This document shows positions 4,853 through 9,724 of a stretch of 64,000 bases of DNA, in pieces; position 1 is the stretch's first letter; each line of letters opens with the position of its first letter. The DNA is from Bdellovibrionota bacterium (lineage in GTDB: Bacteria; Bdellovibrionota_C; UBA2361; JBIKWN01): contig JBIKWN010000001.1 of the NCBI GenBank assembly GCA_044356295.1, positions 32,001 through 96,000 on the forward strand. Reading direction: 5' to 3'. Under the pieces are notes generated by a model. That model saw only the letters and a list, made by a program, of their open reading frames with translations. It had not been told where the DNA came from and ran no database searches. The translations under genes and the position numbers were made by a program.

Positions 4853-6310
<1,458 letters not shown>

Positions 6311-6345
6311 TGTTTCTGGAATATTAAAAGATAAGGCGAATATAT

Positions 6346-6603
6346 ATGTCGTTTAAATTTAGACTACTTACTCAGGCAGGGCTTGTTACTGAAGTAAAAG
6401 CTACATCTGTCACATTACAAGGTGCTGATGGAGAGCTTGGTATATTCGATAATCATGCTGATTATATTGGTGTGCTTGGGAATGGAACATTAACGGTTAA
6501 TCTTTCCGAGGCTGGATCTTCGCCACTTAAGTTTTCTGCTACTGGTGGATTATGTCAGGTAAAGGCTGGGGATCTTGAGGTTCTTGCTGATTTAGTTGCT
6601 TAA
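6346..6603 (+). CDS. atpC: ATP synthase F1 subunit epsilon, N-terminal beta-sandwich only (85 aa)
   Basis: GADGELGIFDNHA and GGLCQV motifs, last gene of the atp operon, no C-terminal helices. Confidence 0.88.
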   Translation: MSFKFRLLTQAGLVTEVKATSVTLQGADGELGIFDNHADYIGVLGNGTLTVNLSEAGSSPLKFSATGGLCQVKAGDLEVLADLVA

Positions 6604-6790
6604 CTTAAGCTACTTGTTTCCCTTATTATAACACCTTCAATTGATTAGGTAGTTGCGACTGCTTGGCTGGGCAGCGTCACCATTTTAATCTTAGGAAATT
6701 CTGCCAAATTTAATATCTTTTTAAGATTACGATTCTGGTCTAAATTGACCAAGCATTAATTTAAATATGTAATTTTTCAAAGGGCCATGT

Positions 6791-7426
6791 ATAAAACATC
6801 CGTATAAAGCAATCTTAAAAACATTCTTAGTCTTTGCTTCGACCATATGCATTACGCAGACAAATAATTCCTTTGCAGATCCTATTTTAAATTATTCGTT
6901 CGTTGAAGCAGTTCATTCATCAACAAGTGATAACCTTGGGTTCGGATCAGGAAGTATTCCAGCGTTTGGTGTTAATGGATCATGGTCTCCATCAGAAAAT
7001 CTTTTTGTTCGCGGGTCATTTTTTCATCAAGATGATACTGGATACAATGCACATGGATTTTCATATTCATTTGGTGGATATGTTCCTTTAAGCAAATCTG
7101 TTCATCTTCTTGGTTCTTTTGGTTGGATAGATGAAAGAGCAAGCACAGATGCTGGTGACTCTGACAACGTACTCCCGAGAGATGTATTTAATAAGACTGA
7201 CTCGTTCATCAGCCCAGAATTGAGAATTAGCCTTTTTGATTCAACCGAACTAAATCTGGGATATACTCGTTTTCTAGACGAAGGAACAATTAATTCTACA
7301 AGCCAAAATAGCTATAAAATTGGAACAGTAATAAGAACAAGCCAAGACACTGCACTAGTTTTAGGTTGGGATATTTACGATTCTAATGCTCAAAAGTTTT
7401 CTGCAGGGATAAGAGCTTCATTCTGA
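6791..7426 (+). CDS. Outer-membrane beta-barrel protein (Ax21/YfaZ-like), probable ATA start
   Basis: The frame of ORF 7220-7426 is open back to 6773. Manual translation (M)KHPYKAILKTFLVFASTICITQTNNSFA-DPILNYSFVEAVH...FSAGIRASF* shows a signal-like N-terminus, alternating beta strands and a C-terminal Phe (BAM signal). The start codon is uncertain. Confidence 0.7.
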   Translation: MKHPYKAILKTFLVFASTICITQTNNSFADPILNYSFVEAVHSSTSDNLGFGSGSIPAFGVNGSWSPSENLFVRGSFFHQDDTGYNAHGFSYSFGGYVPLSKSVHLLGSFGWIDERASTDAGDSDNVLPRDVFNKTDSFISPELRISLFDSTELNLGYTRFLDEGTINSTSQNSYKIGTVIRTSQDTALVLGWDIYDSNAQKFSAGIRASF

Positions 7427-7455
7427 TTTTTCTAAAATCATCCTACGGTGCAACT

Positions 7456-7494
7456 AATCTCCTTAATTTCGTAAATGAAATTAAGGAGATTTTA
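7456..7494 (+). terminator. Perfect 15-bp inverted repeat, probable terminator
   Basis: AATCTCCTTAATTTC-gtaaat-GAAATTAAGGAGATT followed by T residues, 30 nt after the beta-barrel stop. Confidence 0.65.
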
Positions 7495-7519
7495 AAGTTT
7501 GTAGAGAATACTGTTTTTA

Positions 7520-7560
7520 GGTCACGCTCACGCCTAAGGTCACGTTCAAGGGTTACGTTA
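7520..7560 (+). repeat. Hexamer-periodic (GNTCAC-like) element, single arm of the repeat at 63755-63836
   Basis: GGTCAC GCTCAC GCCTAA GGTCAC GTTCAA. The 17-mer GGTCACGCTCACGCCTA is identical to 63801-63817. Confidence 0.75.
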
Positions 7561-7695
7561 TCTCCACTCTAAGGGCGAAGAGCCATACTTCTCTATCTGA
7601 TTGAAAATACAAACAAAATCAATGACTAACCTCGGTTAGTTATCAATGAATTTACTACCGACAAGACTCGTCTGTTAGTAGTATATTGAGAATGT

Positions 7696-8058
7696 ATGCA
7701 CAAGCTTAGCTACTTCAAGAAATTGTCATGCCTGGTTATTTGCCTGTATGCGGTAGTCGTATTCGTACCGAACTGCAATTGTGCTTCAAGAGAGAACCAT
7801 TGTCATAAACATACAACATCTGAAAAAAAACAATCCGAGAAAAAGTGTTGCATCAATCTTGCAACAGCGATTAATACACCTCCTTTACTATCTGAGACAA
7901 ACCTAGATCAGAGCGACTATCTTTCAACCAACAGTTTTCATGTACCTGTAATTTATAATAAAGCTTCAGATTCTCTGGTTGAGAAAAATCTAGAATTTGC
8001 AAACCGATTCAATCCACAATTTTTCTATAAAACTCGCGGTCCCCCATCCCTCGTTTAA
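7696..8058 (+). CDS. Membrane-targeted Cys/His-rich leader protein with C-terminal RGPP ribosome-arrest-like motif (DUF2946/CutF/CruR-like architecture)
   Basis: Basic N-terminus plus hydrophobic helix (aa 10-24), CxC 27-29, HCHKH 35-39, CC 51-52, RGPP at aa 114-117 three codons before the stop. Confidence 0.75.
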   Translation: MHKLSYFKKLSCLVICLYAVVVFVPNCNCASRENHCHKHTTSEKKQSEKKCCINLATAINTPPLLSETNLDQSDYLSTNSFHVPVIYNKASDSLVEKNLEFANRFNPQFFYKTRGPPSLV

Positions 8059-8102
8059 ATAATCTTCTTTATTTTAAAAAATTTATTTATTGGAAACTTA
8101 TT

Positions 8103-8333
8103 ATGAAAACTTTAAAACGTTTATTTACTCTTTCAGCTTTAACATTAGCTATGACTGCAGGTGCTCAATCTGTTTTTGCAGATTCGCATTCATGTAATGG
8201 TGACTGTAAAGACAAAAAAGAGTGCCATTGCAAAGACTGCAAATGTGGCAACGAAAAAGAGTGTACCTGCGACAAAGAGTGTAAAGCTGCAAGTTGCAAG
8301 GATCACCATAAAGGTCATGACGATAAGAAGTAA
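8103..8333 (+). CDS. Secreted metallothionein-like protein
   Basis: Sec signal MKTLKRLFTLSALTLAMTAGAQSVFA, then a 50-aa mature peptide with 10 Cys (three CxC) and 5 His, K/D/E-rich, no aromatic residues. Confidence 0.8.
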   Translation: MKTLKRLFTLSALTLAMTAGAQSVFADSHSCNGDCKDKKECHCKDCKCGNEKECTCDKECKAASCKDHHKGHDDKK

Positions 8334-8347
8334 CGTCTGATAGCTTG

Positions 8348-8385
8348 GCGAGGTTATGGATCTTGAAGAAGTAACCTCGCTTTTT
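8348..8385 (+). terminator. Rho-independent terminator
   Basis: GCGAGGTTA...TAACCTCGC stem followed by TTTTT, just after the metallothionein-like gene. Confidence 0.75.
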
Positions 8386-8410
8386 CCCTTTGATTATCTC
8401 AATGAACGTC

Positions 8411-9724
8411 TTAGGAATCTGACAGAGATAACATCTTTCCAACACGAAGCCCTTCTCGAACTGCGTAATTAGTACCTCTATCCTCAGGATAAACTTGTGC
8501 CATTGTTGTTAGGTAAAGATTCTCAATTGGCGTTTTTTCGGCTGGAATAAAAGAAGAGTAGTGTTTCGTAATAACAGGCTGACTATACGTTGCGCGCCAG
8601 CAAGAATATCCATGAAGCCAACTTTCTTGAAACTCTGGAAATATTTTCTTAATAAACGGAAGGCAGTATTTAAAGTATTCTTCATCTGAAAGCTTAAAGA
8701 GCTCTTCATCTGTTCCAAGATATTTTGAAATATAAGCGATATGCTCCCCTGCATAGTGAGATTTATCATCCATATTTGTGTGCTCAATGACTCCAACGAA
8801 AGGAAATGAAGGGTCTGAAACATTCAACCAGTACGTTGAAGAAAGTGATCTCTTTAATCGAAGAACTAAACAAACATTCCCAAGATACCTAATTGATTCG
8901 CACTGTTTTCGATACGCATCGGGTAGGGATTGAGTCATTTTGGTAAAAACAGGAAGAGGAACAGTCGCAAGCACGGTTTCTGCAAAGTGCTCAGTACCAT
9001 TTGCGCGCACACCGATAGCTTTTCCATCTTTTACAATAATCTCGGAAACTGAAGTATTTTTATGAATAACAGCACCATGAGAAACTAAAAACTTTTCAAG
9101 CGTATCTGTTACCCCTTTAAATCCTCCACGAATATACAAAAGCTCTTCTTTCGCTTTTTCATTTCGCGAAGCACCTCGTAGCTTTAACTTATTCCAAAAC
9201 CATACAGCAGAAATATTTTCAGCTTCTCTTCCAAACTTTCCTTTTAAAAGAGGTTTCCAAATAACTTCAAAGCTATCTTTTCCTGCAACTTTTCTTATCC
9301 AATCATACGCAGAGATATCCTCAAGATACTTCCAATCGGTAATATATCTAGCATAAAGAGCCATAATTCCAGTTCGAACTCGTGCAAAAAATGGAATTGG
9401 ATTGAATGAAAGAAGGTCAAACGGTTTTGCTAAACGAAATATAGAGTTTGCATAGAAAAGCCCTGTATTGGTTTCAACACGTTGTATAGCTGGTTCAAGT
9501 CCAAGCTCTTTAATAAGTCCAAGTATGTGTACATCGTTTGAAAACCAATGGTGATAAAACTTTTCAATAATAATGCCAGGCGAGATTTCAAATACACCTG
9601 CTAGTCCACCAATTTGAGATTCACTTTCAAAAATAGTTACAGGGATATTTTTTTTTACTAATTCAAACGCTGCAGAGAGTGCAGTATACCCACCACCAAC
9701 AATAATGACTGATTTTTCTGACAT
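8411..9724 (-). CDS. FAD-dependent oxidoreductase (protoporphyrinogen oxidase/amine oxidase-like family associated with glycosylation loci)
   Basis: IIVGGGYTALSAA dinucleotide-binding motif, IGGLAG, EKFYHHWF, YPEDRGTNYAV. Confidence 0.8.
   Translation of the reverse strand: MSEKSVIIVGGGYTALSAAFELVKKNIPVTIFESESQIGGLAGVFEISPGIIIEKFYHHWFSNDVHILGLIKELGLEPAIQRVETNTGLFYANSIFRLAKPFDLLSFNPIPFFARVRTGIMALYARYITDWKYLEDISAYDWIRKVAGKDSFEVIWKPLLKGKFGREAENISAVWFWNKLKLRGASRNEKAKEELLYIRGGFKGVTDTLEKFLVSHGAVIHKNTSVSEIIVKDGKAIGVRANGTEHFAETVLATVPLPVFTKMTQSLPDAYRKQCESIRYLGNVCLVLRLKRSLSSTYWLNVSDPSFPFVGVIEHTNMDDKSHYAGEHIAYISKYLGTDEELFKLSDEEYFKYCLPFIKKIFPEFQESWLHGYSCWRATYSQPVITKHYSSFIPAEKTPIENLYLTTMAQVYPEDRGTNYAVREGLRVGKMLSLSDS

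Follow-up and report, generated by a model that had tools for sequence, protein, structure and literature searches.

In a 64,000-nucleotide (nt) stretch of a Bdellovibrionota genome (assembly GCA_044356295.1, contig JBIKWN010000001.1, positions 32,001 to 96,000; here called the window), we analyzed a unit of two small genes, open reading frame 1 (ORF1) and ORF2, and consider the chances even that ORF1 is an arrest leader of the CutF/CruR kind, drawn from a separate protein family, which controls the exported metallothionein-like peptide encoded by ORF2. Together, the two genes would make up a self-contained sense-and-respond cassette. The anatomy of the leader, its recurrence in two phyla, and an invariant Pro-Pro pair near its C terminus are evident from the sequences compared; that the leader senses metal is suggested by its Cys/His motifs, by the YHS and HMA-DUF4396 genes next to its Bacteroidota relatives, and by analogy with CutF and CruR. 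To our knowledge, CutF and CruR, which are counted in DUF2946, are the only two proteins so far shown to exert translational control as exported metal-sensing arrest leaders.

The coordinates and the anatomy given for ORF1 in an earlier note on this DNA (a CxC motif, an HCHKH cluster, a CC pair, a spacer of about 60 residues, and a terminal RGPP) proved exact on translation. The protein has a Lys-rich start, a 15-residue hydrophobic stretch, and then Pro and small residues, and its best 12-residue Kyte-Doolittle mean (3.24) fits either a signal peptide or an uncleaved anchor. It contains seven Cys and five His residues in total. C12 and C16 lie inside the hydrophobic N-terminal segment (residues ~10 to 25); the exported Cys residues are C27-x-C29, C36, and C51-C52, with no CXXC in the protein. 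A poorly conserved spacer separates C52 from the first Pro of RGPP, a distance of 64 residues. The C terminus reads K-T-R-G-P-P-S-L-V, with the TAA stop codon (8056 to 8058) three codons after RGPP, and the RGPP codons CGC (9% usage) and CCC (8% usage) are the rarest or nearly the rarest of their synonymous sets in this genome. We estimated the chance level of such a tail from 6284 ORFs of at least 60 residues and 2204 ORFs of at least 150 residues in the same genome. Pro-Pro fell within the last 10 residues in 1.6% of the 6284 ORFs, whereas R[AGSP]PP did so in 3 of the 6284 and in 0 of the 2204; among those three, only ORF1 also had a hydrophobic N terminus and Cys clusters. The motif in ORF1 is more than chance.

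Tails of this kind are well described. According to the available sections of PMC12992588, RGPP is the most robust arrest core and is refractory to elongation factor P (sections 8 and 10); no other tetrapeptide is as depleted from bacterial proteomes or as prone to arrest, and the copies that survive are located at the C terminus of small secretory leaders. RSPP is arrest permissive and depleted from proteomes, arrest was seen with all seven of the small S. lividans proteins tested that carry a C-terminal RAPP/RGPP, and in the CruR arrest two Pro codons occupy the P and A sites (PMC12992588). ORF1 fits the description of an arrest peptide, with R-[A/G]-P-P near the C terminus of a small secretory or membrane protein and a co-directional gene downstream. 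It shares the C-terminal RGPP on a small secretory protein with ApdA, ApdP, ApcA, and the S. lividans set, as far as these are set out in the available parts of PMC7897499, PMC10951233, and PMC12992588.

ORF2 is likewise what the earlier note had taken it for, a Cys/His-rich secreted peptide whose start lies 44 nt past the ORF1 stop codon. The mature peptide comprises 50 residues, among them 10 Cys, 5 His, and 24 Lys, Asp, or Glu, with 0 Phe, Trp, or Tyr. It thus has the small size, the CxC/CxxC Cys clusters, and the lack of aromatic residues that mark a metallothionein. The ESM Atlas clusters nearest to it, which we treat as leads only, are annotated “metallothionein family protein” (score 0.85) and “putative metallothionein” (TM 0.62); the Atlas model of ORF2 itself has a predicted local distance difference test (pLDDT) value of 0.30. 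An NCBIfam scan of ORF2 returned nothing meaningful. Classical bacterial metallothioneins of the SmtA/BmtA type are cytoplasmic; ORF2 resembles them in being small, Cys/His rich, and free of aromatic residues but differs from them by its Sec-type signal peptide, and we know of no bacterial metallothionein that is exported. Relative to the bufferin-type secreted Cys peptides, ORF2 differs in that its genome carries no MbnB-family enzyme.

A small secreted Cys-rich peptide beside a small membrane protein is also a common toxin/immunity layout, and on that ground ORF2 could be a secreted disulfide-rich bioactive peptide, bacteriocin-like or the precursor of a ribosomally synthesized and posttranslationally modified peptide, with ORF1 as its immunity or accessory protein. 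The peptide profile lends this idea something, in that its matches within the class include the secreted Cys peptides of two further loci (L029 and L030), one of which, L030, adjoins a confirmed MbnB/TglH/ChrH gene. We nonetheless regard it as very improbable. The PF05114 (MbnB/TglH/ChrH) enzyme that adjoins the control locus L030 is found neither beside the unit nor in its genome, which is 93.6% complete; mature ORF2 is highly charged and has no aromatic or hydrophobic core; and the ORF1 tail is of the arrest type. The peptides of L030 (614 to 1767, minus strand) and L029 (at a contig start) are themselves secreted repeat peptides of the CSGDKKCSG type and false relatives of ORF2. The L030 peptide gene stands directly upstream of the Pfam-confirmed MbnB/TglH/ChrH gene, in a bufferin-like cluster; the L029 neighbor was read by eye only.

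Relatives of the leader were reached through the peptide: loci were located by similarity to ORF2 alone, and the DNA upstream was then read. The ORF2 search yielded a 58%-identical homologue in a genome of the same genus (G002) and weaker matches in G011 and G010; of two further weak ORF2-like matches in G011, one had no such ORF on translation and was dropped. In G011, G010, and G104, which represent three other families, a same-strand ORF1-like gene lies upstream of an ORF2-like gene. The recurring unit consists of a hydrophobic N terminus, CxC and CC clusters, a variable spacer, a Pro-Pro tail, a gap, a secreted Cys-rich peptide, and a hairpin. The gap between leader and peptide is 44 nt in the window, 47 in G011, 52 in G010, and 60 in G104, and the tails read, respectively, RGPP plus 3 residues, RPPP plus 7, TGPP plus 1, and RSPP plus 4. 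A profile of the ORF2-like peptides matched 7 of 124 genomes of the class. True ORF2 homologues were present in five genomes, four of which have the leader; the matches in G063 and G096 were rejected as a different type of peptide (that of G063 adjoins a confirmed MbnB-family gene, and that of G096 is at a contig start, with its neighboring gene identified by eye only).

When a profile built from three leaders was run against 91 and later 124 genomes, it recovered no leaders but those three; it also found a metagenome protein, P0005, which is a leader of the G010 type with the tail SGPP plus 6 residues. The G010 leader and P0005 are 57% identical overall but nearly identical over residues 1 to 38 and over the last 13 residues, which end in GPP, with a diverged middle. 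Sequence comparison would be expected to give this pattern for a sensor module and a functionally important tail joined by a free spacer. The neighborhoods of the four Bdellovibrionota units are unrelated, and the two genes therefore appear to move as a cassette.

Searches with ORF2 beyond these genomes found little else: only ORF2 itself in a set of 5.8 billion proteins, no match to plasmids by tblastn, and, in a search for related loci, only G002-type loci without a leader (L020 and L022) and Bacteroidota HMBD proteins (L021 and L023). The protein of L023 (727 to 3580, plus strand), like that of L021, has 184 residues and is secreted, with a Cys/Lys-rich N-terminal half fused to HMBD. That half contains CKDKKEC, as does ORF2, and its gene adjoins those of a CusB-type HlyD_D23 protein and another HMBD protein. 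At the G002-type loci (L010, L020, and L022), the place upstream of the peptide is taken, instead of by ORF1, by divergent genes that by eye resemble QueD and GTP cyclohydrolase I.

Because the clusters nearest to ORF1 in the ESM Atlas were unnamed ones from Bacteroidota, a placement that we used as a lead only, we searched a sample of 401 Bacteroidota genomes with a five-leader profile and obtained four matches. Three of them (L046 to L048) are 120-residue ORFs with a hydrophobic segment, CQC, SCC, and CC motifs, and a [Y/S]SPP tail followed by 11 residues; the fourth (L049) contains stop codons and has no matching ORF, and it was discarded. At L046, a secreted 58-residue peptide with 13 Cys residues is encoded 77 nt downstream of the leader, and L047 and L048 have the same gene order by reading. 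The pair is followed by genes for a YHS-domain lipoprotein and an HMA-DUF4396 membrane protein, assignments tested against Pfam for L046 only. As judged from gene content, these neighbors are the one contextual pointer to metal. L046 (3 to 1743, minus strand), and likewise L047 and L048, has the appearance of a four-gene operon resembling a compact copper-type cluster.

Profile comparison with hhalign linked the Bdellovibrionota leaders to the Bacteroidota trio with 90.4% probability (E, 1.4e-6) over the N-terminal 55 columns. In an alignment of eight leaders (from the window, G011, G010, G104, P0005, L046, L047, and L048), C27, C29, C52, P116, and P117 (window numbering) were invariant in all eight. 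Conservation, which the earlier note had made the first check on its proposal, therefore extends to the pairing and layout in G011, G010, G104, and the three Bacteroidota loci and to Pro-Pro in every leader aligned; where it fails is taken up below.

The earlier note had also pointed to DUF2946, the family of CutF and CruR, and here the outcome was negative for membership by profile search, genome scan, and hhalign alike. None of the five leaders matched the Pfam hidden Markov model (HMM) of DUF2946 (PF11162; gathering score, 23.7 bits), even at an E value of 10. When the 124 genomes were scanned, there was no match at the leader loci of the window genome, G010, or G011, and the match in G104 was on another contig, not at the leader locus. 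As a positive control, six of six true DUF2946-like ORFs of the same class matched PF11162. Aligned with these six by hhalign, the five leaders gave a probability of 11%, confined to the signal segment, and the Bacteroidota trio gave 0.2%. In the five leaders, the first Pro follows the last Cys at a distance of 58, 58, 64, 69, and 77 residues; in the DUF2946-like ORFs of the class, the second Cys of CxxC lies 47 to 49 residues before the first Pro, in agreement with the constant family spacing reported in the part of PMC9426467 available. Thus, because there is no HMM match, an hhalign probability of only 11%, no CXXC, and variable spacing, we do not file ORF1 under DUF2946; as judged from sequence, the ORF1 leaders are a separate family. 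Since the hhalign comparison with DUF2946 was negative, retrieval of ORF1 by jackhmmer from CutF itself is unlikely.

What ORF1 does have in common with DUF2946 is the C-terminal RAPP-type tail, here RGPP followed by S-L-V and the stop codon. The six DUF2946 leaders of the class end in RAPP or RGPP plus 1 to 3 residues, as ORF1 does, and one ends in RGPP-AL. These leaders are L031 (in G084), L032 (G003), L036 (G047), L037 (G012), L038 (G094), and L041 (G117). Genes with a TonB-receptor Plug domain follow L032, L037, and L038, and a porin-like gene whose match to a beta-barrel porin is borderline follows L036; for the long ORFs that come after L031 and L041, Pfam gave no significant match. Two other family assignments for ORF1 were tried and rejected: its Pfam match to the DUF1980 N-terminal domain reached 21.6 bits against a cutoff of 25.9 and was absent from the other four leaders, and DUF6769, an ESM Atlas lead (score, 0.95), matched in 0 of the 124 class genomes.

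In CutF of Rhodobacter capsulatus, encoded in cutFOG, occupancy of the exported Cys motif by copper brings about a stall at a PPP tail, and the stall opens a helix over the next ribosome-binding site (RBS), according to the available text of PMC9973294 and 10.1101/2025.02.05.636593. By the rules given for CutF-like proteins in section 10 of PMC9973294 (fewer than 150 residues, a signal peptide, PP in the last 15 residues, and a co-directional neighbor), ORF1 would fall in the group, with 120 residues, a candidate signal peptide, PP at positions 116 and 117, and ORF2 44 nt downstream on the same strand. ORF1 shares with CutF the small size of an exported protein, a Cys motif behind the signal sequence, a near-terminal Pro-Pro, a short spacer before the next gene, and that gene's direction; the logic by which a nascent chain senses a periplasmic ligand, the ribosome stalls, and the next gene is translated is shared as a proposal. 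It differs in having CxC/CC rather than CxxxC and RGPP rather than PPP, in lacking sequence or profile similarity to DUF2946, and in its putative target, which is a 76-residue secreted metallothionein-like peptide, whereas that of CutF is a multicopper oxidase.

CruR (Bp2923 of Bordetella pertussis) is described in the available portion of PMC9426467 as the DUF2946 prototype, with a conserved CXXC and a CXXC-to-RAPP distance of ~45 residues that is constant within 1 to 2 residues, and its stall blocks Rho-dependent termination. Tails of this type thus regulate downstream genes in both CutF and CruR (PMC9973294; 10.1101/2025.02.05.636593; PMC9426467, each as far as available). CruR heads a metal-related transcription unit, and its mechanism, which needs no helix masking the RBS, would suit the unstructured spacer between ORF1 and ORF2. 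In contrast with the CXXC and constant 45-residue spacing of CruR, however, the ORF1 family has no CXXC and a variable distance of 58 to 77 residues; the CruR spacer is 162 bp long and G+C rich, whereas that between ORF1 and ORF2 is 44 nt long and A/U rich; and the target of CruR, a TonB-dependent transporter, is not that proposed for ORF1.

The arrangement closest to that of cutF-cutO was found in G104, where a helix masks the RBS of the next gene; no masking stem-loop was found in the window. In G104, the R-S-P-P codons pair with the ORF2 homologue's Shine-Dalgarno (SD) sequence with a probability of about 1.0, and among 412 windows scanned across the whole ORF they rank first as an anti-RBS (−11.8 kcal/mol). 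This one relative is the only one for which a CutF-type RNA switch is shown in silico. As a separate observation on the window, ORF2 opens with the nine bases ATGAAAACT (8103 to 8111), and their exact reverse complement, AGTTTTCAT, occurs inside ORF1 (7933 to 7941). No other part of ORF1 pairs as well with the ORF2 initiation region (−7.3 kcal/mol), but the two are 160 nt apart, and the match may be due to chance.

We hypothesize that ORF1 works as follows. It would be translated from a leaderless or near-leaderless mRNA, and its N terminus would bring the growing chain into the Sec translocon. Because 58 to 77 residues separate the last Cys from Pro-Pro, the Cys/His clusters would already lie outside the membrane when the ribosome arrives at RGPP, with the C terminus still in the ribosomal tunnel. 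RGPP would then arrest elongation, its two Pro codons occupying the P and A sites; the duration of the arrest would depend on whether the exported Cys/His module is metal bound or free to fold or oxidize, and that duration would set the amount of ORF2 made from the same mRNA. The direction that we favor is that metal prolongs the stall and raises ORF2, as in CutF, and copper, suggested by the YHS/HMA neighbors in Bacteroidota, would be our first guess for the signal. Arrest, metal as the signal, metal binding by ORF2, and the direction of control are thus all things that we infer. The link from the stall to ORF2 may differ between relatives. In G104, the stall codons themselves would mask the ORF2 RBS; in the window, a CruR-like effect on Rho or on the fate of the mRNA would be equally possible, because no masking helix is present. 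Both rho and efp are present in the host genome.

A broader claim is tenable but falls somewhat short of an even chance: that the leaders form a previously unnamed family of nascent-chain sensors found across phyla and built from a signal segment, CxC, SCC/CC, a free spacer, and an x-P-P tail; that, within a minimal, mobile two-gene “sense and sequester” cassette read from a leaderless mRNA, the chain detects metal outside the cytoplasmic membrane before it has left the ribosome; that the DUF2946-type arrest tail of the leaders was gained independently or by modular recruitment; and that the sole output of the cassette is an exported metallothionein.

Several results weigh against an arrest leader that controls ORF2, and its weak point in the window is the link between the stall and ORF2. 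No RNA switch was visible in the window, either by folding or by anti-RBS scan. The earlier note had proposed that 8053 to 8062 pairs weakly with 8087 to 8097 and so masks the SD region; this helix found no support and was absent from both the minimum-free-energy and the centroid folds of 8020 to 8125. That segment folds at −4.5 kcal/mol (z, +1.54), with 190 of 200 shuffles equal or better, and the RGPP codons rank 130th of 346 ORF1 windows as a partner of the ORF2 RBS. The corresponding ranks in G011 (93 of 382) and G010 (29 of 262) are unconvincing. The tail itself also varies. The Arg of R-x-P-P is present in three of the eight leaders (those of the window, G011, and G104), G010-type leaders have TGPP or SGPP instead of RGPP, and the YSPP or SSPP of the Bacteroidota leaders lies 11 residues from the end, before a hydrophobic tail, and is a candidate arrest site only. 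Conservation of RGPP, part of what the earlier note had proposed to look for, thus did not hold (RPPP, RSPP, TGPP, SGPP, YSPP, and SSPP all occur), and G002 lacks ORF1 altogether.

The missing RNA switch in the window and the Bacteroidota tails that lack Arg and run on for 11 residues are what would be seen if ORF1 were a stable membrane-anchored or periplasmic Cys-rich protein coexpressed with ORF2, as a partner, a chaperone, or a second metal binder, with a nonregulatory tail. We think this improbable, while granting it some weight. RGPP, depleted and prone to arrest as it is, survives at the C termini of small secretory leaders (PMC12992588, as available); a free middle between a conserved sensor module and a conserved tail is unusual for a folded partner protein; and the ESM Atlas model of ORF1 has a pLDDT of 0.50.

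None of the four Bdellovibrionota units has a metal-homeostasis gene beside it. The leader might then report not metal but the thiol-redox state and the capacity for oxidative folding and export of the periplasm (the state of Dsb and Sec), with disulfide formation in the exported Cys clusters pulling on the chain and releasing the stall, so that ORF2 is made according to redox state. In the CutF model itself, the force that ends the stall is ascribed to disulfide formation (10.1101/2025.02.05.636593, in the part available). RAPP/RGPP leaders precede both metal-homeostasis and thiol-redox genes and are enriched upstream of genes for DsbA-family and thioredoxin-domain proteins (PMC12992588, section 13 for the enrichment), and the elements conserved in the leaders are CxC and CC rather than a classical CXXC copper site. 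Against this stand the metal-linked YHS and HMA-DUF4396 genes that adjoin the Bacteroidota pair and the metallothionein-like composition of ORF2, which has His as well as Cys. On balance, we consider a redox signal unlikely, though a serious contender, and retain metal as the preferred signal.

The leader is also not needed everywhere. G002 has the ORF2 homologue without any ORF1, and so does a related metagenome contig; as far as sequence can tell, the leader is therefore dispensable for ORF2 in both. The G002-type loci lack ORF1 but keep the same downstream neighbor, from which it follows that a loss or gain of the leader took place within the genus. Used as a single query, ORF1 retrieved only itself from the genomes of 40 relatives and from 5.8 billion clustered proteins, and an exhaustive phmmer search of 1.8 billion representatives found ORF1 and two repeat-rich proteins, which we judged spurious. 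The dearth of homologues among these 5.8 billion and 1.8 billion proteins and the missing leader in G002 would suit a chance open frame, with ORF2 as the sole gene, but that idea is close to negligible: the same architecture, with invariant Cys and Pro residues, precedes ORF2 homologues in three other families and in Bacteroidota. Finally, the score of ORF2 against the Pfam family Metallothio_Euk (PF12749), 19.9 bits, is under the 22-bit cutoff, which counts against its assignment as a metallothionein.

The general class to which ORF1 would belong is already published: exported leaders with RAPP/RGPP or Pro-rich tails upstream of metal genes are said to be widespread (PMC9973294 and PMC12992588, as far as available). 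The claim in the earlier note that this particular pairing had not been described agrees with our literature searches, which found no such leader before a secreted metallothionein-like peptide; the published list of CutF-like proteins (PMC9973294) may include the Bacteroidota relatives. In the available sections of PMC12992588, the tested arrest peptides precede sec/yidC, sigma-factor, and similar genes, and none precedes a metallothionein-like peptide. Neither PMC12992588 nor PMC9973294 contains the word “metallothionein” (0 occurrences in each); “cysteine-rich” is absent from the former (0 occurrences) and appears once in the latter, where it refers to the Cys motifs of the leaders themselves.

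The locus suggests that the logic of CutF and CruR is used in Bdellovibrionota and Bacteroidota by a sensor family that looks unrelated and that such a leader can control a secreted metallothionein-like peptide, a bacterial type that we did not find described in our literature searches. If the broader claim above is true, arrest tails and extracytoplasmic sensor modules would be interchangeable parts, and bacteria would buffer periplasmic metal with dedicated secreted thiol peptides. G104, in which the stall codons double as an anti-RBS, and the window, which has no RNA switch, offer a natural comparison within one family, and the unit is small enough (about 700 bp) to be moved whole into a reporter strain.

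Table 1. Positions of the two-gene unit and its elements in the window
Feature	Position	Strand	Description
Promoter-like site	7658..7687	+	CCGACA, 18 nt, TATATT; −10 ends 8 nt before the ORF1 ATG
ORF1	7696..8058	+	120 aa; leader-like gene; architecture common to 7 other leaders
Putative sensor module of ORF1	7774..7851	+	CNC (C27, C29), HCHKH (C36), CC (C51, C52)
RGPP codons	8035..8046	+	CGC GGT CCC CCA = R114-G-P-P117; candidate arrest site
Intergenic spacer	8059..8102	+	44 nt, A/U rich; weak SD-like GGA at 8092-8094; no significant structure
ORF2	8103..8333	+	76 aa; secreted metallothionein-like peptide
ORF2 signal peptide	8103-8180	+	Ends in VFA
Terminator-like hairpin and U run	8347..8386	+	Closes the two-gene unit

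The unit measures about 700 bp from promoter to terminator (Table 1). A −10-like hexamer ends 6 to 8 nt before the ATG at four of the four Bdellovibrionota leader loci, by reading; the background for this position in the genome, which has a G+C content of 38.6%, is 104 of 2197 ORF starts (4.7%). Because the −10 element ends 8 nt before the ORF1 ATG, the ORF1 mRNA is probably leaderless or nearly so. The earlier note had seen a two-gene unit bounded by a strong hairpin upstream and a terminator downstream. Both hairpins are there: the upstream stem (7456 to 7491) has a folding energy of −20.5 kcal/mol (z, −6.3), and the downstream hairpin (8347 to 8381), which is followed by the U run, has one of −17.0 kcal/mol (z, −1.9), with a hairpin 3′ of ORF2 at all four Bdellovibrionota loci. 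The upstream hairpin, however, is best read as the terminator of the preceding gene. It follows an open frame resembling an outer membrane protein (6791 to 7426) and is therefore likely to be the terminator of that frame, marking the upstream edge of the unit. The frame, on the plus strand, has 211 residues, a signal peptide, and a C terminus (...GIRASF) typical of outer membrane beta-barrels; it has no ATG, GTG, or TTG start, only ATA or ATT, and no Pfam match at 1e-5. A search of 6300 to 8700 of the window against Rfam gave 0 matches at an E value of 1.

Parts of the stretch are covered by contigs from four other lake runs, which are mostly identical to it and uninformative as to selection on ORF1; an intergenic change at 8099 and, from one other lake run, two changes in ORF2, both synonymous, were the only variants seen. 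In the ORF1 promoter region, a short stretch (7514 to 7553) consists of repeated GGTCACG/CTCACGCC-like units and is matched by many unrelated lake-metagenome contigs with 4 to 5 mismatches over ~35 to 39 nt. Metagenome depth is 38 to 51 over this stretch and 4.4 beside it, so that it looks like a dispersed short repeat. Downstream of the unit lies a gene resembling a flavin adenine dinucleotide (FAD) amine oxidase (8411 to 9724), and the G002-type ORF2 homologue has kept the same neighbor.

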